A stretch of 64,000 nt of DNA, taken from positions 121,389 to 185,388 of IMG/VR virus record IMGVR_UViG_3300028833_000064. One strand, given 5' to 3'. The notes below the pieces were generated by a model that was not told where the DNA came from, did no database searches, and saw only the letters and a program-made list of their open reading frames with translations. The position numbers and the translations under genes were made by a program. The DNA comes from a virus (Duplodnaviria > Caudoviricetes). Of the stretch, positions 13,155 to 40,717 are shown in pieces; the stretch's first letter is position 1, and each line of letters opens with the position of its first letter.

Positions 13155-13159
13155 ATATA

Positions 13160-14459: not shown

Positions 14460-14470
14460 GTTTTTTTTTG

Positions 14471-14542: not shown

Positions 14543-14555
14543 TTGTTAAATATAC

Positions 14556-14696: not shown

Positions 14697-14706
14697 TGTC
14701 TATTTG

Positions 14707-14783: not shown

Positions 14784-15197
14784 ATTACATTACTCACCCA
14801 ACCTGACATACATTGGATTTGGATTATCAGCCGTTCCGTGAATGAAATCAAAATCTTCCATCAATTCTGCCATAATTGTTTTTGTTTAAAGGTTTAACAT
14901 TAAAAATTTGTGCCTTCGTGGGTGCTGCCCCTAACTTTTCAGCCACATACCCTCTAACCGGTTCGGATTTATCACAACTTATTTCCGGATTTCCATTGTT
15001 ATTCACCAAACCGTCGGGACCCCAAGCACTACTGCAGATGTCTTGAGGCTCTCGTCACTAACTTACGAGAATAAACCGGCATGTTAATACAGAGCCAAGT
15101 TGCTATCTTGGAACGAATTTGTATGTTCTCACCTGGCGACCACAGCGACTCGCCTTCCAAAACAGTATCGTTATTGCATTTAACAACTTCTGTATAG

Positions 15198-15499
15198 TGG
15201 GCAGGGAGGGACTTGAACCCCCAGAGTCCTTTCGGACAACAGATTTCAATGATATTGGTATCACTCGACTATGTAATTACCTTGCATTTCTGTTTAGGTA
15301 CTCCGTATATAGTCTGTACACATTTATGAAGTTTCCTTCAATTTAGCTCGGCGTTGATTTGCTTTATTTTACGTGGTGCAAACTTTCACCGAATTAGCGG
15401 AGTTTTTCAATTTGCATTTCTACAAAAAGCTGCATTACCACGTGTAAACCAATTTTTAGTCAACAGTCTGTCCCGCTACCAATTACGGTTTACCTACCC
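15198..15499 (-). tRNA. tRNA-Tyr(GTA) with group I intron
   Basis: ACAGA-CT-GT|intron|A-AA-TCTGT; long variable arm. Confidence 0.88.
15247..15462 (-). mobile_element. group I intron (216 nt, no ORF)
   Basis: exon ends in U, intron ends in G; P7 elements CAGACTATA and ATAGTC; AATTCGGTGAA / CGCCGAGC core. Confidence 0.85.
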
Positions 15500-15573
15500 A
15501 TTTAATTTATTTTATTTTTTTTTACCTTGTCCGTTTTTTCTTGGTTTATATATAGTTCTTCCGATTATTTTTG

Positions 15574-15647
15574 TGGGACCGAGCCGATTTGAACGGCTAC
15601 CTCCAGATTTTCAGTCTGGCGTGACACACCAGTTACACCACAGTCCC
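15574..15647 (-). tRNA. tRNA-Phe(GAA)
   Basis: CCAGA-CT-GAA-AA-TCTGG. Confidence 0.88.
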
Positions 15648-15682
15648 AATTTGAGGTTTTTGATGAACCTCTTAACATTTTG

Positions 15683-15804
15683 TCGGGAGGGCAGGACTCG
15701 AACCTACGACCACGGCTACCCAAAAGCTATTAGAAAACGTTGCTGTTTGATTCTTTATCAAGAATCTATCATTTACGTGCTCTAACCAACTGAGCTACCT
15801 CCCG
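15683..15804 (-). tRNA. tRNA-Pro(TGG) with 48-nt insert at 28/29
   Basis: CG|15728-15775|GCT-TT-TGG-GT-AGCCG; removal gives a 74-nt cloverleaf. Confidence 0.8.
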
Positions 15805-15816
15805 TACTTAAAAAAA

Positions 15817-15905
15817 GCAGACCTGCTTACCAACTACTTGACCGAGGGCTGTCTCCCCTTTCGAGGGGCCTTCGTTGGTGGACTTGAACCACTCCAATAT
15901 CTGCC
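15817..15905 (-). ncRNA. permuted tRNA-mimic (Y RNA/YrlA-like order) candidate
   Basis: terminal GCAGAT/GTCTGC stem enclosing a T arm, then a closed hairpin, then D-loop-like AGTTGGTA. Confidence 0.45.
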
Positions 15906-15908
15906 ATT

Positions 15909-15976
15909 GTGAAATGTGATGGGACTTGAACCCATGACCTCCCCTCGGCGCTCTAACCACTGAGCTACACAATCAC
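15909..15976 (-). ncRNA. anticodon-less tRNA
   Basis: canonical D and T arms; anticodon arm reduced to CC-GAG-GG. Confidence 0.6.
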
Positions 15977-16128
15977 TTCCGAATCACACGGAATATGGTT
16001 CTTTTCAGTACCAATAACCTTGTTTCCACCACTTGGGTCAGGAACATACCCACGTCTATTACTACCAAGACGCCTAATCCCATCTTTTTTCTATCGCCCT
16101 TCAGGGAAAGGGCTTTCACATGTGAGAG

Positions 16129-16202
16129 TGGACCACGATGGGATTCGAACCCACGACTTTCTGACTGCCAGTCAGACGCTCTACCAACTGAGCTACGAGC
16201 CC
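16129..16202 (-). tRNA. tRNA-Ala(GGC)
   Basis: G3:U70, loop CT-GGC-AG; bulged acceptor. Confidence 0.8.
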
Positions 16203-16209
16203 ATGAAAA

Positions 16210-16299
16210 TTGAGTTGTTTAAGGTCTAACTCAAGACTAACGACCGGGGCGATTGTCATCGATTCCACCATCCGATTTTATATGACATCGGAAAACGTT
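16210..16299 (-). repeat. structured RNA repeat, copy 1
   Basis: shares AACGTTTTCCGATGTC..ATAAAATCGGATGGTGGAA and TAAACAACTCAA with 16424..16521. Confidence 0.7.
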
Positions 16300-16301
16300 A
16301 G

Positions 16302-16420
16302 CGGAGAGAGTGGGACTCGAACCCACGACTACGGTCGTGACAGGACATTGAAAACATTGCTGTATGATTCTTTTTCAAGAATACTCTATTTACGTGTTCT
16401 ACCAACTGAACTATCTCTCC
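16302..16420 (-). tRNA. tRNA-Asp(GTC) with 46-nt insert at 28/29
   Basis: CG|16347-16392|GTC-CT-GTC-AC-GACCG; removal gives a 73-nt cloverleaf. Confidence 0.8.
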
Positions 16421-16423
16421 GTT

Positions 16424-16521
16424 TTGAGTTGTTTAAAGTCCAACCCAAACGACTAGGGCTTGCCGGTTTGAATCCGACGAGCAGTTCCACCATCCGATTT
16501 TATCCGACATCGGAAAACGTT
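16424..16521 (-). repeat. structured RNA repeat, copy 2
   Basis: see copy 1. Confidence 0.7.
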
Positions 16522-16523
16522 AA

Positions 16524-16585
16524 CAAGAATCCATAGAATACAAAATTAAAAGTTTTGTCCTGATAATATTGCTGTACGATTCTTT
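16524..16585 (-). ncRNA. free-standing ACAGCAA-module RNA carrying a Lys(UUU)-like anticodon stem-loop
   Basis: AAAGAATC-GTACAGCAA...ACAAAA-CTTTTAA-TTTTGT...GATTCTTG. Confidence 0.65.
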
Positions 16586-16587
16586 AG

Positions 16588-16662
16588 TGGGGAATGAGGG
16601 ACTCGAACCCCCGACTTTCTGAATGTAAGTCAGATACTCTGAACCGACTGAGTTAATTCCCC
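16588..16662 (-). tRNA. tRNA-Val(TAC)
   Basis: cloverleaf. Confidence 0.9.
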
Positions 16663-16672
16663 GACATCTTAG

Positions 16673-16746
16673 TGGACACAGGTGGGAATCGAACCCACGA
16701 CTACCTGTTTGCAAAACAGGAGTTCTACCAACTGAACTACTGGCCC
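16673..16746 (-). tRNA. tRNA-Ala(TGC)
   Basis: cloverleaf, G3:U70. Confidence 0.85.
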
Positions 16747-16759
16747 AAATTAATATCAG

Positions 16760-16844
16760 TGCCCAAGACAGGACTTGAACCTGCACTCCCTAAACGGGAA
16801 CCAGCCCCTCAAGCTGGTGTGTCTACCAATTCCACCACCTGGGC
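16760..16844 (-). tRNA. tRNA-Leu(GAG)
   Basis: cloverleaf with long variable arm. Confidence 0.9.
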
Positions 16845-16860
16845 ATATTGCTTTCATTTG

Positions 16861-16932
16861 TTGTCCTATCAGGTTTCGAACCTAAAACTTCAGAGCCAGA
16901 ATCTGACGTGTTACCTATTATACCATAGGACA
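16861..16932 (-). tRNA. tRNA-Gln(CTG)
   Basis: cloverleaf. Confidence 0.9.
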
Positions 16933-17045
16933 ATTTTACAAAACCTAACCAAACCTTGATTAATGTCGTGAGCTTTGATTATACACACACGTCCGATTTC
17001 CACGGATATTTACACTCTTAACCAGTTTGGTACCGGTTTTGTATG

Positions 17046-17116
17046 TTGTCCTACTTGGACTCGAACCCAGAATTCTTCATCCAAAATGAAGCGTGTTACC
17101 GTTACACCATAGGACA
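17046..17116 (-). tRNA. tRNA-Gln(TTG)
   Basis: cloverleaf. Confidence 0.9.
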
Positions 17117-17127
17117 ATGTTATCTCA

Positions 17128-17165
17128 AATAAAAAATCTCACACTTTCGAAAGAATGTGTGAGAT
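17128..17165 (-). terminator. intrinsic terminator inside the tRNA island
   Basis: ATCTCACAC-ATTCTTTCGAAA-GTGTGAGAT-TTTTT. Confidence 0.65.
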
Positions 17166-17226
17166 GTTGGATATATGTTGAGATTAAAATGTGTTTCTAA
17201 AAAATCTTACAAATGATACAAACAAA

Positions 17227-17322
17227 TCACACAACTATGGACACAAATAGGATAATCGCCATCTGATAAAACCAGTAGACGAGTCCTGTTTTAAATCCCT
17301 TATGTTGTTTATTTGTATTCAT
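17227..17322 (-). CDS. 31-aa small ORF / possible leader peptide
   Basis: MNTNKQHKGFKTGLVYWFYQMAIILFVSIVV*, preceded by CATAAATA, followed by terminator. Confidence 0.4.
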   Translation of the reverse strand: MNTNKQHKGFKTGLVYWFYQMAIILFVSIVV

Positions 17323-17353
17323 ATCTTCGTTATTTATGTAAGTTTCTTTTCTA

Positions 17354-17890
17354 TTATTTATGTAAATTAATTTCGTATGGTTTTATTGAGCGTTTAACTC
17401 TTGCACCGCTTCCATACATAAGACTATCTGCAAGTGTATTTCCGACTTCTGGAAAACCATAACGTCTTTTGTTGTTTAACTGGTCAATATCTGGTTTAAG
17501 TTCCTTTATTTGTATAACTACGGAATACACAACCACTTTACTATTTGGATAACTCAACTCTCCGAAAGTTTTTGCAGAATCTGGATACACAGAAAGATAT
17601 ACATATCCACATTCAGACTGAAAACTTTTTTTCCTTTTTAGACTTGTTGTCAAAATACCCTTATCCATTATAGGATTATTTTCACTTGTACCATGATAAA
17701 GTCTTATATAGTCTTCCTTGTGTCTTCTCAACCATCTGTTAAATTCATCAACAAGTTTTTCGTTATATTCACCATTGAATGAAGTGAAGAACTTAGAAGT
17801 TTCCTCATCATCTAAGACATCGTATGTCTTTGGTTCTCTATAACTACCATAGTATAATTCATTAATAAACTCATCAAACTTTTTAATCAT
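17354..17890 (-). CDS. ADP-ribosyltransferase-fold (Tpt1/KptA-like motif) protein with capsid-targeting-like N-terminus
   Basis: LYHGTS...I..KGI...GYVYLS...A..FG; N-terminus MIKKFDEFINE. Confidence 0.6.
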   Translation of the reverse strand: MIKKFDEFINELYYGSYREPKTYDVLDDEETSKFFTSFNGEYNEKLVDEFNRWLRRHKEDYIRLYHGTSENNPIMDKGILTTSLKRKKSFQSECGYVYLSVYPDSAKTFGELSYPNSKVVVYSVVIQIKELKPDIDQLNNKRRYGFPEVGNTLADSLMYGSGARVKRSIKPYEINLHK

Positions 17891-17924
17891 ATTTCTGTTT
17901 GCTTTATTTATTTATGAATTTTTG

Positions 17925-17998
17925 TACTCCGGACGGGACTCGAACCCGTAATCTCCACCGTGAAAGGGTGGTGTCCTAACCAATTAGACGACCGGAGC
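17925..17998 (-). tRNA. tRNA-Glu(TTC)
   Basis: cloverleaf. Confidence 0.92.
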
Positions 17999-18065
17999 AT
18001 AGTTGTACCGATATCGCTCGATACGGGCGGGTGAAAAATCACCATCTTGCCAGGTCGGGTTTTTG

Positions 18066-18138
18066 TCGGGTAAAGAGGACTCGAACCTCCGACCCCTTGG
18101 TCCCAAACCAAGTGCTCTACCAACTGAGCTACTACCCG
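18066..18138 (-). tRNA. tRNA-Pro(TGG)
   Basis: cloverleaf. Confidence 0.92.
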
Positions 18139-18144
18139 ATTATT

Positions 18145-18655
18145 ACTAAAGTGTGTTGTGAATGCACTTATAGTCTAACACATAACCTATTTCAGTGTAT
18201 TCCAAAGCGAATATCTTTTTCAAATGCCGATAACCTCTCCCCACTATACTGCACATAAACGTATCAAGGGTTATTTAACACTGTGCTGTGTTGAGGTATC
18301 AAACACTATCAAGGACTAACCATTTGTGTGTTTTTCTTCACACCAACATCACTTTAGGGAAACATTCCTCTAACTATTCTTTCCCGTTCTCGGTCGCTTC
18401 CAATTCCGATATTAGGTAGTTGTCTTACATCACCTGAACATCCGGTCGACAACGGGGCGAGCATAAATTTTCCGGATATCTTTTCCAAACTTTCATTGTT
18501 TATAGGAACAACATTTGGGTTTCGGGTTTCACTTATTCAGGCTCCGATTGAGTAATAATAGAGCGTGAACGTGAACATTTCATGTATATAATACTATAAT
18601 TTCTCTGCCTATAACACCTCGGATGAAAATTCCGAGCCCTATTCCTTATAGTATT
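18145..18655 (-). ncRNA. large structured ncRNA candidate (~500 nt)
   Basis: no credible ORF, many hairpins, between tRNAs. Confidence 0.4.
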
Positions 18656-18658
18656 TTG

Positions 18659-18731
18659 TGGACCCACTGGGAATCGAACCCAGACTTAAGGCTTGCAAAG
18701 CCCTCGTGCTTGCCGTTATCACTATAGGCCC
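18659..18731 (-). tRNA. tRNA-Ala(TGC)
   Basis: cloverleaf, G3:U70. Confidence 0.85.
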
Positions 18732-18897
18732 ATATAGAAAGACTTTTTGACACAAATTTCTCAAATCTGACTAAGAGAAGTAACAATGTTTGCATACCAA
18801 GATTCTTTAACCCCCAAAGTGGGATTTTTCAAAATTTGTGCCGGACGGTCTTATCTTCGTCCAAGGGGTACAAACCGGAGAAAATTACCGGAGAAAT

Positions 18898-18957
18898 ACC
18901 GAGGTTAATTGAAACGTTTACTTTATGTATTTGTAAATCGTTGCTGTTTGAATCTTT
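18898..18957 (-). ncRNA. degenerate ACAGCAA-module RNA
   Basis: AAAGATTC-AAACAGCAA; closing stem imperfect. Confidence 0.4.
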
Positions 18958-18971
18958 AACAAACAATATTG

Positions 18972-19043
18972 AGCCGATGGAGGGATTTGAACCCCCGACC
19001 TGATGCTTACAAGGCAACTGCTCTACCCCTGAGCTACATCGGC
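18972..19043 (-). tRNA. tRNA-Thr(TGT)
   Basis: cloverleaf. Confidence 0.9.
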
Positions 19044-19048
19044 ATTTA

Positions 19049-19109
19049 CAAGGTTCACTTTTATGAGTCGAACATAATATAACCAAAAATAGTTGCTGTA
19101 TGAACCTTT
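19049..19109 (-). ncRNA. free-standing ACAGCAA-module RNA carrying a T-arm
   Basis: AAAGGTTCA-TACAGCAA...TTATG-TTCGACT-CATAA..TGAACCTTG. Confidence 0.65.
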
Positions 19110-19224
19110 AATTTAGTGAGCAATGAGCAGTCTCCCACTCAAAACCCAATTTCCTCTTTTGGAAAGCCTGAGAACTTAGGCAAAGTTGTCACCATTACAC
19201 GATAGTTGGACATCGTTGTTCACA

Positions 19225-19938
19225 GTATGTATTTCTACATCCTAGGTGACATGTGCTTCAGTTTTGTGAAAACTGACAAACTCTTACTGCTTGATATCGT
19301 AGATTTCCGTTCTCCACCGACCGTCCTGCATAAGACTTCTGAAGATGCCTCCTCATTGTTCGATGATTACTTGTACTTTCTTGTCTTCAACCTTGCAAGT
19401 CTCCGACACCCCCGTGTTACAGAGGGACAAGCACATTTTCTACCAAACAGTGTCGTGCTCTTTTGCTTTTTTTCAAAAATAAAAAATAATTGAATCTTAG
19501 CCTTTTTGATAACTGTTTTTAGAAAGATGTGGCACGACTTTGGTCATTCCTACCTTTTGAGTAAGACCCAACCAACACCTTTCTATGTTTCATCGTTCCC
19601 CAACGACTCCACATTCTCCGTTTCGTTCCATACAATTTCTCATACAGAACTAATCCTTTGTAATACTTGCAATTGATAGGGAAATCTTTCACAAGTACCT
19701 GCTAAAGACATCTATTGTACTTTCATACTCAAACCAGGTTTTACCCGATTGTCATCTGCTTCATCCTCATCATTTGACATTGGATTTCCCACAGACAACG
19801 TGCCCTAGCACTTTTCAACAGATTGCATCTTTCGATACAACGCCACATCCCGTTTATCTCGGATATGACTTTATCCCATTGCTGGATTATCCTTTGGTCA
19901 AGTCCGAAGACTTAACACTGGTTCTGAAAGCGAACCTT
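19225..19938 (-). ncRNA. very large structured ncRNA, GOLLD-like candidate
   Basis: ~700 nt purine-rich, hairpin-rich, no credible ORF, in a phage tRNA array; family assignment from size/context only. Confidence 0.45.
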
Positions 19939-19943
19939 TTTTG

Positions 19944-20016
19944 TAGCGGGGGGTGGATTCGAACCACCGACCTTCGGGTTATGGGCCCGACGAGCTGGCC
20001 TCTGCTCCACCCCGCT
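19944..20016 (-). tRNA. tRNA-fMet(CAT), initiator-like
   Basis: three consecutive G-C pairs in anticodon stem, GGAGCAG D arm. Confidence 0.85.
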
Positions 20017-20030
20017 ATGTTTCATTTTAG

Positions 20031-20103
20031 CGGGAACAGTAGGGTTCGAACCTACGACCATCACCTTAACAGGGTGCCGCTCTACCAGCTGAGCTATGTT
20101 CCC
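20031..20103 (-). tRNA. tRNA-Asn(GTT)
   Basis: cloverleaf. Confidence 0.9.
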
Positions 20104-20130
20104 AATTACCAATACTTGTTACCAAACTAG

Positions 20131-20208
20131 CGGTACAAGAGGACTCGAACCTCTGGTCTCCAACGTCCGTAAGGTCGTTGACGTTCTTCCCCATTAAACT
20201 ATGCACCT
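20131..20208 (-). ncRNA. atypical tRNA with extended anticodon arm
   Basis: TCAACG-ACCTTACGGA-CGTTGG; D and T arms present. Confidence 0.5.
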
Positions 20209-20267
20209 GGACTTCCTATCATCATTGTGACTTGACCGGTATTCACAACTACTTTCAAAAATCTTAG

Positions 20268-20340
20268 CGGTCCATACGGGACTCGAACCCGTGTCGCCGC
20301 CGTGACAGGGCGGTATGCTAAACCACTACACCAATGGACC
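20268..20340 (-). tRNA. tRNA-Asp(GTC)
   Basis: cloverleaf. Confidence 0.92.
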
Positions 20341-20377
20341 ATTTCTATTTATGAAAAAGTTTTTTTAGGAAATTTTA

Positions 20378-20449
20378 CAAGGTTCACTTTTTTATCTTGG
20401 CATCTGAAATATGGTTCGGATTAGATTTTTTATTGCTGTATGAACCTTT
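20378..20449 (-). ncRNA. free-standing ACAGCAA-module RNA
   Basis: AAAGGTTCA-TACAGCAA...TGAACCTTG. Confidence 0.65.
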
Positions 20450-20458
20450 AAATGTGTA

Positions 20459-20525
20459 CAAGAATCTTTTCCTGAGTCATTCAAAAACACTGAATTTCAT
20501 AGAAATTGTTGCTGTATGATTCTTT
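20459..20525 (-). ncRNA. free-standing ACAGCAA-module RNA
   Basis: AAAGAATC-ATACAGCAA...GATTCTTG. Confidence 0.65.
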
Positions 20526-20618
20526 ATCTACACGATTTCCTTATTTATTATTTTTCCCTAACAATATAAATATAACAAAAAATTCAAGAAATTTTAATTT
20601 TTTTGAATTTTTTTTTTG

Positions 20619-20690
20619 AGCAGATGAGCAGAATCGAACCGCCATCTCCAGCTTGGCAAGCTGATGCACTAACCATTGTGCTACATCTGC
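20619..20690 (-). tRNA. tRNA-Gly(GCC)
   Basis: cloverleaf. Confidence 0.88.
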
Positions 20691-20698
20691 ATAAAAAG

Positions 20699-20785
20699 CG
20701 GAGAGGGAGGGATTCGAACCCCCGGAGGCTGTTACACCCCAACGGTTTTCAAGACCGCCACCATAAGCCACTCGGCCACCTCTCC
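20699..20785 (-). tRNA. tRNA-Ser(TGA)
   Basis: cloverleaf with long variable arm. Confidence 0.9.
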
Positions 20786-20910
20786 AATTGTCGTTTCTGT
20801 CTTTGTTGCAGAAGACTAACGACTGTGTGGAAACTGTCTCCTGACATACGATGCAACTCTACGTATATCTACTGAACGTGATGACAACCACAATCCTTCA
20901 CGTGAATTTG

Positions 20911-21029
20911 TCGGGTGGAGGGGAATCGAACCCACTGTCACGGCTACCAAAAAGCAAAGAACGTATTGCTGCAAGATTCTTTCACAAGAATCAAATAAAT
21001 ACGTGTCCTAACCACTAGACGACCACCCA
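20911..21029 (-). tRNA. tRNA-Gln(TTG) with 46-nt insert at 28/29
   Basis: CG|20956-21001|GCT-TT-TTG-GT-AGCCG; removal gives a 73-nt cloverleaf. Confidence 0.78.
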
Positions 21030-21031
21030 AG

Positions 21032-21118
21032 CGGAGAGGGAGGGATTCGAACCCCCGAGCCCCTTACGGGACTACCGGTTTAGCAAACCGGGGCATTCGG
21101 CCACTCTGCCACCTCTCC
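21032..21118 (-). tRNA. tRNA-Ser(GCT)
   Basis: cloverleaf with long variable arm. Confidence 0.9.
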
Positions 21119-21424
21119 AAATTTGTGTGTCTTAACACGGATTACCACACATTTAATGAAATTTCGGAGTCTCCTTCGGCCGTATCTTCCAGTGCATGTC
21201 CTATCTGATTGGGTTTGAATATGCTCTCAAATACCCACAGAGTCAAAAGACCAACGTATCGCTATCTGACATCGAATAAGACTGTATTCTTATAACCAGC
21301 TTGTACTTTATGTTCCATCCACGTTGGTATCGTAACACAAAGGGAGTTTGTAGTCATTAGCATCGGACAAACCAAACCTTTCCGAAAATTAATCCGATGA
21401 CTGGGAGCGGCCCAGCGATTTTTG

Positions 21425-21497
21425 TGCCATCGAAAGGAGTCGAACCTATATACATTGGGTTTTTAACCCAATCACTCTACCATTGAGTTACGACGAC
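21425..21497 (-). tRNA. atypical tRNA, apparent anticodon AAA (Phe)
   Basis: ATTGGG-TT-AAA-AA-CCCAAT (6-bp stem). Confidence 0.5.
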
Positions 21498-21519
21498 ATT
21501 TACCATCGTTTTGGTACGA

Positions 21520-21850
21520 TGGTGAGAACCTGCCCTTAAAGACATTGGTCTAAACTACCACCGATTAGGCGGCAGCGAGCATCACCATGTTATTGGTGTT
21601 GTTATTGTAGTTGCCATTTACTGACAAGATGAGTCTCTACACCTTTCATACTTATACAGTATCAAATCCAAGTCATCCCCGTGTTACCTTGGCGGTTCGG
21701 TCTCGTATAGACCGCCCAAGGTTGAGTGTTCTGCTATTTGTATCGGACTTACAATTGATACCGAAGTCAGGGCGAACACTGAATAAACTGGTGGAGATGT
21801 TGGGGTTCGAACCCAAGTCTACCATACTTTCCTAAAAGTTTCAAACGAAA
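21520..21850 (-). ncRNA. ssrA: circularly permuted two-piece tmRNA
   Basis: acceptor piece ...GACTTGGGTTCGAACCCCAA-CATCTCC-ACCA (ends 21789) precedes coding piece GGGGATG-ACTTGGATTTGA (starts 21680); tag 21615-21565 GNYNNNTNNMVMLAAA*. Confidence 0.85.
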
Positions 21851-21858
21851 CCCATTTG

Positions 21859-21900
21859 TGATGTCACGGGAATCGAACCCGTCGTTATTCCAAAAACATC
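21859..21900 (-). ncRNA. tRNA minihelix (acceptor stem + T arm only)
   Basis: GATGTT/GACATC-A with ACGGG-TTCGATT-CCCGT. Confidence 0.5.
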
Positions 21901-21941
21901 TGATTCTATTTATGTTTTTTTATTTTCGAAATTTTTTTTAG

Positions 21942-22015
21942 TACTGACGGATGGGCTTGAACCATCGACCCCCATCTTATAAGGATGGTGCTCTAACCGA
22001 CTGAGCTACGTCAGT
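21942..22015 (-). tRNA. tRNA-Ile(TAT)
   Basis: CCATC-CT-TAT-AA-GATGG. Confidence 0.88.
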
Positions 22016-22282
22016 ATTTTGTTGAACATCACACCGGAACTCCCTTTGGTAATTGCTTAATGGATATTCCACTTTATCCATCCAACACTTACTGTGTTGT
22101 TGTTGGTTATCTGTTCCGATTACAAGCAGCACACTTGATGATGTGGAAGAAAAGTCTTACTTTGTTCACGGTTATTTGCCATTCACCATTACTCCAACCG
22201 TACCGACTACCTATCAGCAATCGAGGTTTTACGTCAGTCGTATTGACCCATTTGATAAGACATCCTGTGATTTCCAACATTG

Positions 22283-22356
22283 TGGTCCTGGAGGGACTTG
22301 AACCCCCGACCCGCTGATTATGAGTCAGCCGCTCTAACCAACTGAGCTACAGGACC
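22283..22356 (-). tRNA. tRNA-Ile2/Met(CAT)
   Basis: GCTGA-CT-CAT-AA-TCAGC, Ile2-like body. Confidence 0.85.
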
Positions 22357-22368
22357 GATTATGTTTTG

Positions 22369-22705
22369 TACTCCGAGTGGGACTTGAACCCACACGCCCT
22401 TTCGGGCAACAAATTTTCATACCACACTTACTTTTACATAAGCCATCTACTTGAGATGTTGTAGTCTGGACTATTTCTTAACCATGCCTTTCGGTTTAGG
22501 TCTCCACCTATATAGTCTCTACGCCATTTACACATTTCTGTGCTTTAGAGAGTCATCGCCAAAGATTATGTCACCACAATCGAGGTTTCTGTTTGTTAGG
22601 GCAGATTCTACATCCCAACAATTAATCTTGTTGTTTTCTCTTTTCAGAAATGGATGCACTCTTTTTTATCAAAGTCTGTCGTGTCTACCATTCCACCACC
22701 GGAGC
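22369..22705 (-). tRNA. tRNA-Leu(TAA) with group I intron
   Basis: ACAGA-CT-T|intron|AA-AA-TTTGT; long variable arm. Confidence 0.88.
22418..22671 (-). mobile_element. group I intron (254 nt, no ORF)
   Basis: U| 5' junction, terminal G, GAGACTATA and ATAGTCC P7 elements. Confidence 0.82.
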
Positions 22706-22718
22706 AGATTTACTTAGT

Positions 22719-22836
22719 ACTCAAGTGGGAGTCGAACCCATGGAAATACATCCCCCCAATGACTTTGTTCCCAAGCCACCAAAGCACACGAGTCTGTGTA
22801 CGGGCAGCACGTCGTCCCATTGTCATCACTTGAGTA
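22719..22836 (-). ncRNA. tRNA-like RNA with non-tRNA interior
   Basis: TACTCAAG/CTTGAGTA stem, TGGG-TTCGACT-CCCA T arm. Confidence 0.55.
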
Positions 22837-22839
22837 TCT

Positions 22840-23379
22840 CATCCGTTGTATATTCCGAAGGAATGTCGATGTTTATCCCTTATTATTTTTCCATCGACTC
22901 ACATTCGGGTCGTGATGTTTCCATTCAGAAAACACAACAGACGATTTTGAGAATTTTTCTTCACTCAATCGGATTGGCCTAACCCGAAAAGCAAAGGCGA
23001 CCTTTATAGACATTTAGAGGAATCTTTCATATGGGTTGTACACCCCACCACCTTCTTTCATTTTATTGGTGGTCTCTCCCTCATTTAGTTCGGTCATAAC
23101 ATTCTTCATGGTGAGGTTGATTCTTGGTTTAACGTCTTCCACAAGTCACGGACGTATGGCTTAGGAATGGAATCTCCACTCTACCTCAACATACGGATTG
23201 GATTTCTATGCCCTATAGGGCAAAACCTTAATCCCCTGTGTTTAAACACATATTTTCTCTCTCCTGGGGATACTCGATTTTACGAGTGTACCATTTGAAG
23301 AAGATGACACGATTTGGGTCACATTTCTCATTTACCATCTATAACACCCACATGGGTAGGAAGAGGGTTTGAACCGTCG
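22840..23379 (-). ncRNA. large structured ncRNA candidate (~540 nt)
   Basis: no credible ORF, hairpin-rich. Confidence 0.4.
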
Positions 23380-24219
23380 TCAGATGGTGTAACGGCAATT
23401 CCGGAATGAAGTTTCTTCGTTAAAACCGTGCTTTCTTATTTTCAGGAGATTCTCACTCCATTCTTTTGATTTACGGCCTTGTATAATTTCGTGAAGAAGA
23501 CCCTCTTCTTTTTCGAGTTTCTCCCTTTTTTTCTCTCTCACGGACTTCTTGTAGGCGGAATCACGCTCATATCTTGCCCGTGAGTATTCGGGAGTTTTCT
23601 TTCCGAACTCTATAACTTCACCATCAATGACGGGATGAGCCTTTCGACATAGTTCGACAGGTAAAGGATAGAAAGACACCATTTTCGAAATTTTTTCGTA
23701 CTCTTGTGGCGTTATCGTCTCGGTGAAAAGACGATGTAGTCTGTCCTTTCCAATCTTTTTTTCTAGACTCAAGATTTCAGTCTTGGTGAAGTTCTCCACA
23801 TTAAAGGTATATCCTGTCACAACTCTATTGTCAATGAAAGCTTTTTGCACTTTTTTGTGAAACATTGAGACTCTCTCATTTTTGGTGATATTTCCGACTT
23901 CATCAACAACATATTCGTTGTATTTTGAATGTGGATGTGTAATAGGATAAAGTTCTGAGTGTATCAAGAAATAACCGTCATAACCATATCCGAATTTTTC
24001 ACGGATGTTATGGTTGAGGGTTCGTCGACACTCACCGTAGTTTTCTCCGACATGTTTTTCCCAAAATCTGTTGATATAGGAGAAAACATTACTTCTACGA
24101 CACCACTTCTTCTCATAAAAGTCATAGAAATCACCATTTTTTTTACCGCTGTAACAGAATGTGTCCTTTGTGCAGGATGCATGTTGTACGGATTCTTCGT
24201 TTTTTTTAATTTTTTTCAT
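23380..24219 (-). CDS. basic hypothetical protein in the tRNA island
   Basis: 279 aa ORF, K/R-rich C-terminus. Confidence 0.7.
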   Translation of the reverse strand: MKKIKKNEESVQHASCTKDTFCYSGKKNGDFYDFYEKKWCRRSNVFSYINRFWEKHVGENYGECRRTLNHNIREKFGYGYDGYFLIHSELYPITHPHSKYNEYVVDEVGNITKNERVSMFHKKVQKAFIDNRVVTGYTFNVENFTKTEILSLEKKIGKDRLHRLFTETITPQEYEKISKMVSFYPLPVELCRKAHPVIDGEVIEFGKKTPEYSRARYERDSAYKKSVREKKREKLEKEEGLLHEIIQGRKSKEWSENLLKIRKHGFNEETSFRNCRYTI

Positions 24220-24281
24220 AGTATTTATCCTTAGTGTTATATACTTCGGATAAAACTAGAATTATAAATTTCGTGATTCAT
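24219..24281 (-). promoter_or_regulatory. uORF (MNHEIYNSSFIRSI*) plus start-sequestering hairpin
   Basis: uORF 24281-24237; TAGTTTTATCC pairs with GGATAAATACTA(TG). Confidence 0.5.
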
Positions 24282-24310
24282 TTTTTTTACTTTTTAAACG
24301 TTAATATTTG

Positions 24311-24395
24311 TGCCCAAGGTGGGACTCGAACCCACACCCCCTCAACGAGGACAACATTTTGAGTGTTGAGTGTCTACCAATTCCACCACTTGGAC
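24311..24395 (-). tRNA. tRNA-Leu(CAA)
   Basis: cloverleaf with long variable arm. Confidence 0.9.
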
Positions 24396-24400
24396 ATTTG

Positions 24401-24473
24401 AGCCCCATACCGGATTCGAACCGGCGACCTACTGCTTACGAGGCAGCCGCTCTACCGGCTGAGCTAACGGGGC
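24401..24473 (-). tRNA. tRNA-Thr(CGT)
   Basis: cloverleaf. Confidence 0.9.
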
Positions 24474-24480
24474 AAAAACT

Positions 24481-24578
24481 AGGGAAGTGAATGGGATTGA
24501 ACCCGTATCATCCGACATGCACACGCTCTGAAAGAAGTGCAAGTCTCAGATTTCACCCCCTGACGACCATTATTCCCC
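24481..24578 (-). ncRNA. tRNA-like RNA with long acceptor and long central arm
   Basis: GGGGAA../..TTCCCT ends, GGGTTCAATCCC T arm. Confidence 0.4.
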
Positions 24579-24652
24579 AAAGGTGATTTGTCGTCAATAT
24601 ATCCTTATCTCCAATATGTCAAAGAACTTTTGGAACTTTCGTTCCTCAATTT

Positions 24653-24684
24653 CAAAGATACTATTCTTTTTTGATTTTTTCAAA
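24653..24684 (-). promoter_or_regulatory. Bacteroidota-type promoter driving the tRNA island
   Basis: TTTG-N19-TATCTTTG. Confidence 0.65.
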
Positions 24685-24718
24685 AAGATTGCATCTTTTT
24701 TGAAATCTTTTTTTTTTG

Positions 24719-24793
24719 TACCCCGTACAGGATTCGAACCTGTGACCTATGACTTAGAAGGACATCGCTCTAATCCTACTGAGCTAACGGGGC
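24719..24793 (-). tRNA. tRNA-Arg(TCT)
   Basis: cloverleaf. Confidence 0.88.
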
Positions 24794-24888
24794 ATATTTT
24801 TATCTCATCAGATTAAATATAACAAAAAATCTGAAAAAATTATTTTTTCAATGTACTCTCGTGATTTTCTTTCATGGTTTAAAAGATA

Positions 24889-25251
24889 CTATTTATTTTT
24901 CAAACTATTAAAAAAATTTTCAACTTTTTTATTTATGTCGGGGTTTTCTTGAAGAAGTTTTTTTGAAACAAGCACGTATTCATCACAGTCATATATCTTT
25001 GACTGAGCCTCCCTCCACAACCGTTCCACTTCTTCTTCCGTCTCTCTCACATAGTATCCTTCAACGGGACAATCATCCCAACCTGTATAATATCTCACAT
25101 ATACTTTCCCATCCTTTTGGGTTTTTACTCCGGCGAAATTTTCGGTGTCCTGCCATTCTTCTTCGCCGGTTTTTAAATCATGGACACAAAATGATGTTGT
25201 GTGTACCATATCTACTTCGACTCTTACCTTTTCATCTTTATATATTTCCAT
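24889..25251 (-). CDS. hypothetical protein
   Basis: 120 aa ORF. Confidence 0.65.
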   Translation of the reverse strand: MEIYKDEKVRVEVDMVHTTSFCVHDLKTGEEEWQDTENFAGVKTQKDGKVYVRYYTGWDDCPVEGYYVRETEEEVERLWREAQSKIYDCDEYVLVSKKLLQENPDINKKVENFFNSLKNK

Positions 25252-25270
25252 ATCTTATATTATTTAGTAG

Positions 25271-25343
25271 TGCCAGTATACGGACTCGAACCGTAATCTG
25301 AGCTTTAGGAGAGCCCAGTTCTATCCTGTTGAACTATACCGGC
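25271..25343 (-). tRNA. tRNA-Arg(CCT)
   Basis: cloverleaf. Confidence 0.88.
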
Positions 25344-30981: not shown

Positions 30982-32559
30982 TTAAGAATCTTCATCATCA
31001 ACCCCGTTGGCGGCATAGTATTCATCCATTTCGGCATAGGTGAGTTGAGTTTCCATATCGACCTCACCAGCATCATACTGCTTTCTTTCTCTTATTCTGA
31101 ATGCTTCTGTCTTCAGTTTAAAAGCTTCTGCCTTTTCGTCATTTTCTATACGGATGACGACACCTTCACGTGGAACATATTTATTACACATTGGTTCAAG
31201 TGATTCCATACCGAATCTTTGTTTGTCGTTTTCAAGTCGTTCAAGCAACGATTCCTGCCAGTGATGTTTTGTGTCGAGGTCTGGATAAAGGTCTCCGAGA
31301 CGACCATGATAAAGGATTGTAATTGGCTTTATCTTACCTTTCAACTCGGGATGTTCATTCAAAGTATTTATTGTCCATTGATAAACATCCTGTACATTCC
31401 AATCAACATGGTTTCCTTCGGCATCCGTTTCGGTTATTCTGTAAGGCATCAAGATGTTCTCACCGACCTTACAACCATAGTCGTAACCCTTTTGAATCAT
31501 ACTTGTGGAACCAGTAACATAACCGACAATCTCACCATACAATGTCATACCTTCCTTCAAAAGTGGATAGATAATCTTTCCGTACTCAGACCAGATATCA
31601 ACCTTATAGAAACCTTGACCTACGGCCTTATTAATGTACTTGTTCTTAATGACGCCTCTCGAAGACGTTATTTCACCATACTCAAGTTCATAATGAGGGA
31701 GAAGCATTTCACGTCTCTTATGGTCAATAAAACTGAAAAATCTTCTAATGAAGTTCTTTACAATTCTGACTCTCTTTTCGAAAAAATCTTCTGGAAGATA
31801 CTTCTTGGTAAGTAGATTACCGGAGATAAAAGACGTTCCGTGTTCCTTGACTGAGATGTCCACAACAGTATCCGGTGTGAATCTCCACAAGTTGTCCTTC
31901 AATTGGCTGGTGTCATAATGGAAAGCAAACTGACCATCTACCATACGGTCGAGTTTCATCATAGTCTTTCCTCTCTTTCGGTCTTTCTTAGAAACTCCTG
32001 TCAGATTGTTTTGACGGTGTTGAACAGGTGGAATGTATGTCTTTATGAAAAGAACACCATCAACAGTGTCAAAATCAAATGGAACAACAATTCCATCTTC
32101 ATTTGGTTCGAAACACTTCTCAAAATCATATTCCAACACCTTTGGATTCCACTTGGCAAGAGAATCGATTGAAAAAAGACATCCTTCAGATGTACAACCA
32201 CGAAGTTTGACCATCTTCACACGTCCATGACGGTTGAAATACCCAACCATCTTCTTCGCTTCGGATTCCTTACCCTCATCAATGAGTTTCTGAACATCCT
32301 TGTAATTCTTGTTGAGATGTCTTTCACTCATTTCAAACTGATTGTTAACCGACAAGAAATCCTTGTTGATGACAGTCTCCATCTTGCAATAGACCATGAT
32401 GTCACCTTCCTTTACACTGTCCTTTCCGACAACGACTTGGTATGCACCTCCAATTTTTGTTTTGACGAGAAAATCAGAACCCTCAATTGGAAGCAACTCA
32501 CCAATCTTTACAATTTGAGCACAATACTCAAGCTTAATGTTTTCACTTTTTGTAAACAT
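30982..32559 (-). CDS. RNA ligase (DRB0094/Rnl2-like) with N-terminal OB domain
   Basis: PIEGSD...KLRG..SEG; KEHGTS, YGEI, EGVV, FKLK. Confidence 0.8.
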   Translation of the reverse strand: MFTKSENIKLEYCAQIVKIGELLPIEGSDFLVKTKIGGAYQVVVGKDSVKEGDIMVYCKMETVINKDFLSVNNQFEMSERHLNKNYKDVQKLIDEGKESEAKKMVGYFNRHGRVKMVKLRGCTSEGCLFSIDSLAKWNPKVLEYDFEKCFEPNEDGIVVPFDFDTVDGVLFIKTYIPPVQHRQNNLTGVSKKDRKRGKTMMKLDRMVDGQFAFHYDTSQLKDNLWRFTPDTVVDISVKEHGTSFISGNLLTKKYLPEDFFEKRVRIVKNFIRRFFSFIDHKRREMLLPHYELEYGEITSSRGVIKNKYINKAVGQGFYKVDIWSEYGKIIYPLLKEGMTLYGEIVGYVTGSTSMIQKGYDYGCKVGENILMPYRITETDAEGNHVDWNVQDVYQWTINTLNEHPELKGKIKPITILYHGRLGDLYPDLDTKHHWQESLLERLENDKQRFGMESLEPMCNKYVPREGVVIRIENDEKAEAFKLKTEAFRIRERKQYDAGEVDMETQLTYAEMDEYYAANGVDDEDS

Positions 32560-32667: not shown

Positions 32668-33258
32668 TCAACATTCTATTACAAAATTACTGCATTTTTT
32701 TTCATTTTCAACATCTATTTCTTGGATTATACTATTTAAACACTTATTTCTTTTTTCCAAATTCAAGATTTTTTTCTTCAATGTCATCACCCTCATACTA
32801 CCTAATCTTGCAAGGTATAGCATTTGTTCGATGTCTAGTTTTTGACAATATAAATTATCCTTTGGACACTTTTCCACACTTATGAAATCAGAATCCTCAC
32901 GATATACAATAATGCCAGCAGTCACTCTCCAATCATTACGATTTTCGAAATTATCAAGAAACTCAATAACCTTGTCCTTTATTTTTTGTGGAACACAGTA
33001 GTAAAAGTTCTTAATATATTCAGACGTGTGGTCATGTTCTTTCTTAAAGTCGTTTAAGAAATCTGCATAAGAACGCTTTATCTCTATTTCGGTAAGATAA
33101 CCAGCCTTGGTGCAGACCAAAACGTCACATTCATGCCAAATCGGAAGAATACCACTCGTACCGAAGACATTGAATACCACTAGTTTTTTTGTGTAATCGA
33201 AATCCTTTGACCTTGCTATACTTAATTCTATCTCATATAATTCTTTATTTGTGTCCAT
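32668..33258 (-). CDS. PD-(D/E)XK nuclease-like (MmcB-like) protein
   Basis: ECDVL...TEIEIKRSYADF..DFKK...FYYCVP. Confidence 0.7.
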   Translation of the reverse strand: MDTNKELYEIELSIARSKDFDYTKKLVVFNVFGTSGILPIWHECDVLVCTKAGYLTEIEIKRSYADFLNDFKKEHDHTSEYIKNFYYCVPQKIKDKVIEFLDNFENRNDWRVTAGIIVYREDSDFISVEKCPKDNLYCQKLDIEQMLYLARLGSMRVMTLKKKILNLEKRNKCLNSIIQEIDVENEKKCSNFVIEC

Positions 33259-33263
33259 TACAT

Positions 33264-33895
33264 TTACTTTATTTTATCACAAGCCTTGTTCCGGAAGATG
33301 TCACAAAGTTCCCAATACGAGATTGGTCTATATCCATTTTGGTCAACTCCGACATCATACTGGTTCTTTCTTAGACGTGACGGAACATCACCGTCTATTC
33401 CGTAACAAGTGCCGTCACTCAAAGTATGTATGTGACCGAACACTTGGTAATCACCATTGAAAGCACAGCACGGATAGTGTTCGGCGTAAATTTTTACACC
33501 ATCTACCATAATGAACGCCTTGTCAACAACGGCAATGAGATTCTCCTGTGGTTCCGTGCATAATGATATATAGTCATGGTTGCCACGAAGAAGTAAAATC
33601 TTTCCGTTCAACTTACTCATATATTTCAAGTACGGTGCTGTATCGACTTTGTGATTCAACATAAAATCTCCACAGTGTACCACAATTCCATCCTTCGGTA
33701 CGACACTGTTCCAATTCTCAATCAGAGTATGGTCCATCTCCGAGCGAGATGCAAACGGACGATGACAATACTTACAGATATTAAAATGTGAAAAGTGAGT
33801 TAAGTGTCCGAGGTAAAGTACAACTTACTTGGATTATCTATACCCAATGTGTACATACCTCGGAACTGATTTCCTTTAATTGTTTCCATTTTCAT
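33264..33895 (-). CDS. calcineurin-like metallophosphoesterase interrupted by a 5-nt gap
   Basis: frame A ...LYFTSDT* (33895-33800); frame B THFSHFNI...HCGDF...GNHD...GHIH (33800-33264). Confidence 0.8.
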
Positions 33896-33941
33896 TTAAT
33901 TTACGAATAATTTTATATACTTTACCTTATTATATTTCTAT

Positions 33942-34946
33942 TTATACTTCATTTAATTGTGTAAAAATATGATTCATCAATATTCCAACAAGATTAACAT
34001 CCCAACCATTACCTGCTCTTTTCGAAAGTTGTGAATATGATTGATTGGCAAAATTCATTTCACCATCTCTTAATCCCATCAGTCTGAATTGCTCTTGCAC
34101 AGACATTTTTCGTACAATCTCAACACTATCATCGTGTGGTACTTCAACCACACGTAAGACGTTATGTTCTGGTTGTGTGATTGTGATACATGTACCATCA
34201 TATTTGATTTTCTTATTATAGACATCAAAACACAGAGGTTCTTCAACGACAAATGATTTGATACCATGTTTTTCCTTTAGATGCTCAATTTGTGTATGTG
34301 AAAGATACAATTCTTTCGGTGGATTGGAGTCAAGAAAATCACAAAGTCTAAGACCGTTGTGTATTTCGGGAGGAACCATGTTGAATCCTTCCGGTAATCC
34401 ACCCAATTTGGCGAACATCCATAGTCTTTCTCTGTTCTGTGGAATACCATAGTTTTTGGTGTTGAGAACGGTATACGCCAAAGGATTGTCTCCGTATCCT
34501 ATTTCACTCAACATACTTTTCATTTTGTTGAACGTTGGTTCAAACTTTTTGGCAGTAAGACCTTTTACATTCTCCATCAAGATATAACGAGGTTGCTTTT
34601 CTTTGCAAATCCTTATTATATGATAGAAAAGAGTGCCACGTCCATACAAATCGTTCTCACCCATCTGCATTCCCGCTGAAGAAAATGGTTGACATGGAAA
34701 ACCACCTGTAAATAAGTCGAAATCCGGTAGTTCTTTGGGGTCTATTTTAGTAATATCACCATAATTATGAATAGGTGTCCCATCTATATTATGATGATTT
34801 GCATCAAATAGTTCTGATGCCCATTTATCTAACTCAGAATAACCGACAACTCGATAGTTAAAATTTGGATGCTGTTCTTTTACTCTTTTTAATCCATATG
34901 ATGCACCACCATATCCAGCGAATGCTTCAAACACTCTCAGTTGCAT
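33942..34946 (-). CDS. dcm: DNA (cytosine-5) methyltransferase
   Basis: FAGYGG, GFPCQ, ENV, PQNRER, AGN. Confidence 0.93.
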   Translation of the reverse strand: MQLRVFEAFAGYGGASYGLKRVKEQHPNFNYRVVGYSELDKWASELFDANHHNIDGTPIHNYGDITKIDPKELPDFDLFTGGFPCQPFSSAGMQMGENDLYGRGTLFYHIIRICKEKQPRYILMENVKGLTAKKFEPTFNKMKSMLSEIGYGDNPLAYTVLNTKNYGIPQNRERLWMFAKLGGLPEGFNMVPPEIHNGLRLCDFLDSNPPKELYLSHTQIEHLKEKHGIKSFVVEEPLCFDVYNKKIKYDGTCITITQPEHNVLRVVEVPHDDSVEIVRKMSVQEQFRLMGLRDGEMNFANQSYSQLSKRAGNGWDVNLVGILMNHIFTQLNEV

Positions 34947-35472
34947 GACTCTCGATATAAGATTTATATTTATTGTATGTATCTCTTATCACATTCTCAC
35001 CTACTGGATGCTCTCTTTTGGAATCACGCTCAATACACACCTCGAGTGGTGTGTAGATAAACCGATACTCAACGACATATCCATACTTACGTGCCATCTT
35101 CTCAAGACCCTTACGTATTTTAGAGTTTAGGTTCATGTTATCCGACACCACATCTTTTCCACTTTTGAATGCAGCGGTTAAAGCGGCATTCTCAATCTTT
35201 GTGACGATGTTTTCGAGATTTGGGTTAAACGGTTTTCCCATCATCAATCGAATTTCATCACGATTGACACGGATACGGTTGTCGGGGTCTTCAAGGACAA
35301 ACTTACGGGCGGCAGTAGACTTACCACTTCCCTGCAATCCTTGATATATATAGAATGTCTTTTTCTTATCCGTTGAAGTCTTCTTATTCTTTAATTTGAA
35401 TATCAAATCCAACAAATAAATTACCAAAAATAAAATGCATAATATTATTGCAATAACAAAATAAAATACCAT
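34927..35472 (-). CDS. polynucleotide kinase (AAA_33, PseT kinase-like)
   Basis: GLQGSGKST, NRDEIR, D.MNL, CIERD..R..PVG. Confidence 0.85.
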   Translation of the reverse strand: MVFYFVIAIILCILFLVIYLLDLIFKLKNKKTSTDKKKTFYIYQGLQGSGKSTAARKFVLEDPDNRIRVNRDEIRLMMGKPFNPNLENIVTKIENAALTAAFKSGKDVVSDNMNLNSKIRKGLEKMARKYGYVVEYRFIYTPLEVCIERDSKREHPVGENVIRDTYNKYKSYIESHATESV

Positions 35473-39877: not shown

Positions 39878-40717
39878 TTAAATAGTTATAATAAAGTATT
39901 TGGAATCTCCGGCGTTGTCAACAAACCATAAATCCTTTCCATTCGACATTGTTGTCTTGTAGAAACAATTATCCAACACACAATCAAATTCCGTATTTTT
40001 GAAACAAAATTTTCTATTATCTTCTAAACACATCATAGTGTGTCCAACAACTTGTCTGAAATCACCATATGGATACTTGGCGAGCATAGCTGGACGTATC
40101 CACGTTGGACCTTGATTTGGATGGTTTCCCCAACCGCTGAAATCATAATCATAGTAGGATACTATTGAACACAGTTCATCAACACTCCACCCTTTTTTAC
40201 AAAGTTTTTTGAAATCATATCCCTTTGATGCAACCATATTTACCCAATCATAACTTACACCGGCGTGACTGAAGATACAATTTCCAACGACAAACATAAG
40301 TCTTGAATCTTTAAGATTTTCGGAAATAAGATTTCTGATAGTTTCTATCTCATAGTCATCTATGGAACTTCTGTTTGTCTTATCAGATTCAATGATATAT
40401 TTTGAAAGGTCGTGGTTTCCAAGAATAGACACAATTCTGTTATCCATTTTCATGCAAGAAATAAATGTATTGTATCTTTCAACCATAGTTTCGAAATCGA
40501 CACTTCCATAAGGGTCAAAATGGTCACCGAGAACGACTATTTTACTCACATCGTCGTTATGTTTCAAAATATGTTCATATCCTTCGATAAACTTTAGAGT
40601 GCCATGAATGTCACCGATAACGGCAATCTTTTCACATTCTGTCAAATCAACCAAAACACGTTCAGAAGTTTGTTTGCTCACTTCTGGTTTCGTAGTGAAT
40701 GTTATTATATTTTTCAT
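39878..40717 (-). CDS. metallophosphoesterase
   Basis: GDIHG, LGDHFD, GNHD, SHAG, GHT. Confidence 0.88.
   Translation of the reverse strand: MKNIITFTTKPEVSKQTSERVLVDLTECEKIAVIGDIHGTLKFIEGYEHILKHNDDVSKIVVLGDHFDPYGSVDFETMVERYNTFISCMKMDNRIVSILGNHDLSKYIIESDKTNRSSIDDYEIETIRNLISENLKDSRLMFVVGNCIFSHAGVSYDWVNMVASKGYDFKKLCKKGWSVDELCSIVSYYDYDFSGWGNHPNQGPTWIRPAMLAKYPYGDFRQVVGHTMMCLEDNRKFCFKNTEFDCVLDNCFYKTTMSNGKDLWFVDNAGDSKYFIITI

Follow-up and report, generated by a model that had tools for sequence, protein, structure and literature searches.

An active-site stop codon in a phage metallophosphoesterase gene and the case for a programmed 5-nt translational bypass

How a ribosome could make an intact enzyme from a gene whose catalytic motif is divided by a stop codon is the question raised by a metallophosphoesterase gene in the window, by which we mean the whole 64,000-nucleotide stretch analyzed here, which closes a 185-kb jumbo-phage record of IMG/VR that comes from the gut (rumen) of a ruminant. 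The initial annotation proposed programmed ribosomal bypassing (a stop-hop) at a D-x-H motif split as GAC ACT-TA-ACT CAC, and the coordinates and frames on the minus strand are as it described them, with the junction reading GAC ACT TAA CT CAC. From sequence comparisons, we consider it probable that the gene, part of a kinase-phosphoesterase-RNA ligase repair cassette, encodes one 208-aa calcineurin-type metallophosphoesterase and that its translation includes a programmed 5-nt bypass. The features of the gene, in the order in which a ribosome would meet them, are these:

33803 to 33895, minus strand: ORF-A, the first 31 codons of the phosphoesterase, MKMETIKGNQFRG-MYTLGIDNPSKLYFTSDT
33807 to 33864, minus strand: predicted RNA hairpin of 9+5 bp, ending one base before the take-off codon ACT
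33803 to 33805, minus strand: proposed take-off codon ACT (Thr31), the x of D-x-H
33800 to 33802, minus strand: stop codon TAA in the ORF-A frame, with C as the next base
33798 to 33802, minus strand: the five bases TAACT, proposed to be untranslated and placed by alignment with the uninterrupted homologues L003-L007
33798 to 33800, minus strand: proposed landing codon ACT, its first base being the last A of the stop TAA
33795 to 33797, minus strand: resume codon CAC, the His of D-x-H
33264 to 33797, minus strand: ORF-B, CAC and 176 further codons in the +2 frame, with its stop at 33266-33264

ORF-A opens with ATG at 33895 and its 31 codons, translated as MKMETIKGNQFRGMYTLGIDNPSKLYFTSDT, end in ...LYFTSDT; they include a 13-codon N-terminal extension that carries the 5′ arm of the hairpin and is absent in uninterrupted relatives. 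The Asp of D-x-H is the last-but-one codon of ORF-A and is missing from ORF-B, the two ACT codons are separated by TA only (33802-33801), and the motif is contiguous only if 5 nt are skipped. When T31 is conceptually joined to the His, the two halves give 208 aa in all (31 + 177 codons), and a hop would restore a frame with all metallophosphoesterase motifs, in agreement with the initial annotation. In the window, the ORF-B frame holds no ATG, GTG or TTG upstream of the His codon and the conserved HFSHFNICKYCHRPF stretch, and ribosomes can therefore only arrive from ORF-A. The earliest start codon in this frame, the ATG at 33737, lies 20 codons past the junction, and those 20 codons are conserved as protein despite many synonymous changes; together with the missing upstream start, this conservation argues that the frame is read from the junction on. 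Independent initiation of ORF-B was considered and is excluded for the window by the lack of a start codon, while 38 of the 88 interrupted relatives described below, the window not among them, have a possible start (ATG, GTG or TTG) close to the junction in the frame of ORF-B.

We assign the product to the calcineurin-like metallophosphoesterases (PF00149/PF12850; PHROG 547; aq_1665-like). ORF-B matches Pfam Metallophos and the phosphoesterase PHROG 547 (1.6e-35), and the motifs GD, GNHD, H and GHxH follow the His of D-x-H in that order, with the Asp supplied by ORF-A. A PDB search with the single sequence gave no match; the family profile found 1XM7, the solved structure of Aquifex aq_1665, with an E value of 1.9e-19 and a match that starts at its residue 11. 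The gene lies between two others:

34927 to 35472: AAA_33 polynucleotide-kinase-like gene
30982 to 32559: RNA ligase gene, on the other side of the phosphoesterase

The order kinase, phosphoesterase, RNA ligase is common to interrupted and uninterrupted relatives, and the phosphoesterase is probably the end-healing enzyme of an RNA-repair set.

A C5 cytosine DNA methylase gene (33942-34946, minus strand) lies between the kinase and the phosphoesterase. Of the close relatives, L001 and L002 lack it at that place; L268 has it, and L261 carries a methylase of another type instead. A bovine relative (run X3) has 1030 additional bases between 33921 and 33942, and genes are inserted at this intergenic site with unusual frequency, making it a hot spot. 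On the other side, ahead of the RNA ligase, 32668-33258 (minus strand) encodes a 196-aa protein that belongs to PHROG 2776, weakly matches a PHROG annotated 'DNA repair protein', and whose motif ECD...EIEIK suggests a PD-(D/E)XK nuclease and whose gene occurs in L002 and not in L001. A second metallophosphoesterase gene at 39878-40717 (minus strand) is uninterrupted and belongs to another subfamily (279 aa, GDIHG ... GDHFD ... GNHD), and is no back-up copy of the interrupted one. An island of 32 tRNA genes at 12007-25343 includes Thr(UGU) and Thr(CGU), without Thr(GGU). ARAGORN counts 33 genes there, including a predicted tmRNA at 21474-21881 with the tag GNYNNNTNNMVMLAAA; if the phage makes its own tmRNA, slow events at stop codons, the proposed hop among them, would face competition from it.

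The five additional bases are retained in independent data. A bovine-gut DNA contig from another study spans 33200-33921 with no gaps and keeps the 5 nt, as does a metatranscriptomic Logan contig that spans 33584-33885 with no gaps, this single RNA-library contig being the RNA evidence, with DNA carry-over possible and minority forms hidden within contigs; RNA runs X17 and X19 do not cover the junction. Read support was among the checks that the initial annotation had proposed. Two relatives, 92% and 84% identical, share the 5-nt insert in slightly altered form (ACC TAA CT and ACT TGA CT), and the uninterrupted homologues L003-L007 (56-66% identical) have GAY-NNN-CAY exactly at the window's 5-nt position. 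Because independent DNA and RNA contigs and five relatives keep the 5 nt, these sequences indicate that the insert is neither an assembly error nor a private mutation. Within the six-member 5-nt clade formed by the window and five close relatives, dN/dS in ORF-B is 0.05-0.12 where measurable, synonymous sites are saturated between sublineages, and dN is below dS in the upstream 18 codons of ORF-A; both halves of the gene thus appear undecayed, as had been supposed.

To place the junction in its family, we assembled 88 distinct interrupted elements by scanning phage and metagenome contigs with sequence patterns and by protein similarity, the relatives found by protein being drawn with two sub-profiles of the family. 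A strict 20-nt pattern (ACCTCGGAYACNTRACTCAY) found 12 stretches in the viral collection, all of them phosphoesterase genes 24-36% identical to the window's and all with an upstream TCCGRGG arm, although that arm lay outside the search pattern; across 596 Gb of prokaryote genomes it matched seven times, each time by chance in an unrelated sequence. Looser patterns and the metagenome scan left free the triplet before the His, the gap (2-14 nt after the stop) and TGG in place of the stop. Most elements were found with patterns that fix the 3′ arm of the hairpin, making nucleotide conservation partly a matter of ascertainment, and spread as a mobile cassette inflates apparent conservation, part of which may reflect recent spread and not long selection. 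In a junction-blind, protein-based sample of 160 loci, 151 were intact, four had a 5-nt insert and five had other inserts. A BLAST search of cultured-phage records with the junction, a short query for which such a search is not exhaustive, returned uninterrupted genes only.

The interrupted relatives vary in the length of the insert and agree in its construction. All 88 have an Asp codon, then ACN, then a stop (TAA in 41, TGA in 24, TAG in 23), and TGG at the stop position, which the pattern allowed, occurs in none of them and was seen only in unrelated chance matches. The insert is 5 nt long in 56 elements, 6 nt in 16, 7 nt in three, 8 nt in eight, 9 nt in two, 10 nt in two and 12 nt in one, as in the junctions ACG TAG TT ACG and ACC TAG TG ACC or, in frame, ACC TAG ACT and ACC TAG GTA GGA ACT. 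Even within the window's own clade there are inserts of 5 nt (TAACT, TGACT), 7 nt (TAAAACA, TAAGACT) and 8 nt (TAAAGACT, TGAGAACG). The triplet before the His codon (CAY) is ACN in 75 elements, ATN in eight and GCN in five, so that 13 of the 88 would land on something other than a Thr codon; all 88 triplets can be paired by the tRNA-Thr anticodon NGU if one G.U pair is allowed. Take-off codon, adjacent stop and a matching landing codon 5 nt on thus hold in the window and the arrangement recurs in the 88 relatives, while the claim of matched codons stands in a modified form: a Thr-tRNA-pairable triplet is universal and an exact match is dispensable, AUN and GCN being one G.U pair away. In gaps of at least 7 nt (L190, L247, L278, L209, L254), the bases between stop and landing triplet are purine- or G-rich (GTAGGA, AGGG, GTTG, AG, GT).

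A hop from ACN to the triplet before the His gives D-T-H in all 88 elements. Since the inserts fall in all three frame classes and the ACN, the stop and a pairable triplet are fixed, no single frameshift or readthrough event would fit them and only a hop does. That one hop would serve all insert lengths is our central argument for bypassing, and it is supported by the sequences compared here.

The long stem-loop that the initial annotation placed just before the take-off codon is present, and its elements are as follows:

33864 to 33856 and 33815 to 33807, minus strand: outer stem arms TCCGAGGTA and TACCTCGGA, as RNA UCCGAGGUA/UACCUCGGA
within 33807 to 33864, minus strand: inner stem GUACA/UGUAC (DNA GTACA/TGTAC), then UUGGGU/AUCCAA

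The region folds at -25.1 kcal/mol compared with -12.8 for shuffles (z = -4.7), and none of 200 shuffles was as stable. Its 3′ arm is formed by the Thr-Ser-Asp codons ACC UCG GA, and ACC, TCG and GAC are minority codons in this phage of 34.9% GC, accounting for 18%, 7% and 36% of their respective families. A helix that has the Thr-Ser-Asp codons as its 3′ strand and closes on the last base of the Asp codon reaches at least 7 bp in 86 of the 88 elements, mostly 8-10 bp, with 0-1 nt between it and the take-off codon; in 104 uninterrupted homologues the helix anchored at the Asp has a median of 4 bp, and shuffles never exceed 7 bp. A conserved gap with matched codons and a hairpin is what the initial annotation had asked homologues to display; these 88 have the gap with pairable codons, and 86 of them the hairpin.

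Several observations point to pairing as the conserved property. The 5′ arm lies 5-54 nt upstream in varying reading frames (S-E, S-G, F-R-G, S-P-R), and the constraint therefore acts on RNA and not on protein. The arms covary (TCCGAGG/CCTCGGA, TCGGAGG/CCTCCGA, TCGGACG/CGTCCGA, TCCGGCG/CGTCGGA), at the base of the helix G...GAC alternates with A...GAT, and in L001 the inner stem carries a compensatory change from GTACA/TGTAC to ATACA/TGTAT. Among 21 distinct short-loop versions, 100% of cells pair, four of ten pairs show compensatory changes, and the covariation score was reached by none of 500 shuffles. Two other candidate signals were rejected: a Shine-Dalgarno-like GAGGU/GGGGU in the 5′ arm, whose distance to the take-off codon varies from ~16 to ~58 nt, as the main signal, and a pairing of the take-off codon with an upstream AGU in the window fold, which is not conserved in L001. 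Two relatives, L180 and L181, have an uninterrupted GAT ACC CAT gene that still carries a 12-bp hairpin, TCAGAGGTAAAT/GTTTACCTCTGA, closing on the Asp codon (positions about 350-400); this gene may be a revertant that lost the gap, or a precursor.

We propose that a ribosome translating ORF-A would unwind the hairpin and then pause, its P site holding peptidyl-tRNA-Thr on ACU and its A site presenting UAA-C. The anticodon would then release, the mRNA would slip by 5 nt, and the same tRNA would re-pair on the ACU that overlaps the stop, so that decoding restarts at CAC to give ...FTSD-T-HFSH... with the D-x-H metal site intact; the predicted tryptic peptide across the hop junction is LYFTSDTHFSHFNICK. 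The hairpin cannot be folded at the moment of take-off, when its 3′ strand fills the E site and exit path of the ribosome, and, abutting the take-off codon as it does, it would probably re-zip behind the ribosome and pull the mRNA forward. How the hairpin acts is conjecture on our part; the stem, 8-12 bp long, is comparable in length to the longest hop (12 nt, in a range of 5-12 nt), and for gene 60 of phage T4 pairing of the mRNA leaving the ribosome has been proposed as a forward driver (bioRxiv 10.1101/2024.12.09.627546).

Other readings of the junction were weighed against bypassing. The two frames in the window differ by +2/-1, and a conventional programmed frameshift at the junction would give D-T-L-T-H (-1) or D-T-T-H (+2); in the 5-nt class, moreover, NTR as read in the downstream frame encodes Leu or Val in every case, which is automatic once the other frame requires a stop. 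The window junction has no slippery heptamer, either product would break the D-x-H spacing, and the relatives' inserts occupy three frame classes, with in-frame inserts of 6, 9 and 12 nt and with 5, 7 and 8 nt inside the window's own clade, so that we regard a frameshift as extremely improbable. Scarcely more plausible is that the 5 nt are removed from the RNA before translation, by editing or by cutting and religation, perhaps by the phage's own RNA-repair enzymes. The place of the gene between polynucleotide-kinase-like and RNA ligase genes would suit such a route, and the hairpin beside the site could guide a nuclease. The RNA-library contig across the junction, weak evidence as it is, retains the 5 nt, and removal of RNA needs neither a stop at a fixed place nor a triplet that tRNA-Thr can pair, yet both are universal; we also know of no splicing of this kind, which counts against it.

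A third reading, to which we give a small but somewhat larger chance, is that a homing-endonuclease scar has inactivated the gene, with ORF-B unmade, made alone from the ATG at 33737, or working as a fragment with the 31-aa peptide. Endonuclease genes adjoin many interrupted copies, the interruption is scattered over the tree with 26 changes, and in some relatives a potential start codon lies close to the junction. Such a loss is hard to reconcile with a dN/dS of 0.05-0.12 at saturated dS after the insertion, with conservation as protein of the 20 codons from the junction to the first start, with an ORF-A that keeps its [WF][FI]TSD strand in frame up to the gap, and with further damage in none of 70 full-length downstream ORFs, and it leaves the hairpin covariation and the landing-triplet rule without a reason. 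The variable inserts, the covarying hairpin, the low dN/dS and the retained 5 nt instead support programmed bypassing as the initial annotation had suggested it.

The nearest known parallel is gene 60 of phage T4, in which a 50-nt bypass is associated with a MobA homing-endonuclease cassette (Manning and Atkins, bioRxiv 10.1101/2022.08.31.505936; Wills et al., bioRxiv 10.1101/2024.12.09.627546). The initial annotation appealed to matched codons, an adjacent stop and mRNA structure as hallmarks of the gene 60 type; the present element has codons that one peptidyl-tRNA can pair with, the adjacent stop and a putatively stimulatory 5′ stem-loop. As in gene 60, the stop directly follows the take-off codon and the landing codon can be re-paired by the retained peptidyl-tRNA; a 5′ helix, an N-terminal extension and phage origin are likewise shared, and relatives lie beside a homing endonuclease gene. 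Unlike gene 60, the hop proposed here is 5 nt (5-12 in relatives), a tenth of the 50-nt distance; no stem-loop holds the take-off codon and stop (the A-site stem-loop), for which a 5-nt gap is too small; the 5′ hairpin abuts the take-off codon (0-1 nt) and does not lie 9 nt upstream; the codons are Thr (ACN) and not Gly (GGA); the host gene encodes a phosphoesterase and not a topoisomerase; and the endonucleases belong to several unrelated families, with none adjacent in the window. The G-rich bases in relatives' gaps of at least 7 nt recall the mini Shine-Dalgarno before the gene 60 landing site. Peptides before take-off are 13-34 aa long and variable save for [WF][FI]TSDT, which is present in uninterrupted enzymes too; because only these 13-34 variable residues precede take-off, a long nascent-peptide signal seems unlikely here.

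Hops of this length also have an experimental counterpart. In synthetic E. coli constructs, Weiss et al. in 1987 reportedly saw low-level tRNA hopping over stops, +5 and +6, at about a percent and with no stimulator. The present element resembles those constructs in its matched codons flanking a stop and its peptidyl-tRNA hop of 5 or 6 nt, and differs from them in being natural, conserved and paired with a covarying hairpin. For the terminase gene of Streptomyces phage Hau3, bypasses of 10 nt have been proposed, with a junction peptide identified by mass spectrometry in E. coli (Antonov et al. 2023, PMC10732093). That gene shares with ours a short coding gap in a phage gene and a proposed 5′ stem-loop, whereas its take-off, proposed to be regulatory, is set off by a rare UUA codon in the A site, in place of the stop found here, and the present element recurs in many unrelated phages. 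The bypassed inserts (byps) of Magnusiomyces capitatus mitochondria, a mobile-element-like family across many genes (PMC10732093), are like our elements in being many natural coding gaps skipped between matching codons, and unlike them in being 27-55 nt long, mitochondrial and spread through many genes.

The origin of the interruption may be read from the company that it keeps. Directly upstream of interrupted genes we found LAGLIDADG genes in L002 (of the window's clade), L017, L018, L019, L211 and L270, genes for NUMOD3 proteins in L216, L242 and L255, an HNH gene in L214 and a TnsA-like gene in L010; the window has no endonuclease gene beside the phosphoesterase, its upstream gene being the C5 cytosine methylase. 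The LAGLIDADG gene of L002 (2020-2922), whose product bears a zinc ribbon at its N terminus, stops 61 nt short of the phosphoesterase junction, its 3′ end near the start of the N-terminal extension in a MobA-like arrangement. On a tree of 194 family members, the interrupted state requires at least 26 changes, compared with ~57 when labels are shuffled, and the cultured phage MT835470, which is uninterrupted, is ~90% identical to the interrupted L017. From these relatives, we infer that the gap, the recoded GC-rich Thr-Ser-Asp codons and the N-terminal extension together would be the scar of a homing-endonuclease cassette, one that would interrupt the nuclease target in DNA encoding a conserved motif, as in T4 mobA/gene 60, where the insert shields the invaded gene from its own endonuclease (10.1101/2022.08.31.505936). 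The window itself would have lost the nuclease or never had one, and its element has the look of a scar that persisted after the nuclease was gone.

We found no paper in the literature on bypassing in a phosphoesterase. To our knowledge, the firmly established cases of efficient programmed bypassing are essentially those of T4 gene 60, with its homologues, and of yeast mitochondria. On balance we lean toward a broader proposal, held less firmly than the decoding of the single gene: that these elements form a widespread class of natural mini-bypass, in which a stop and a hairpin closing on the codon ahead of the take-off codon suffice for tRNA-Thr hops of 5-12 nt, with neither an A-site stem-loop nor a long peptide signal, and which unrelated homing-endonuclease families use as an immunity scar to invade an essential active-site motif. 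Genes of this form are now annotated as two fragments or as pseudogenes. If the proposal is true, a second and much simpler family would provide a minimal system for how the ribosome releases a codon and lands again, with dozens of natural variants in which the gap (5-12 nt), the stop codon, the triplet landed on and the hairpin vary. A further consequence would be that homing endonucleases can invade the DNA encoding an enzyme's active site and bring their own decoding fix with them.
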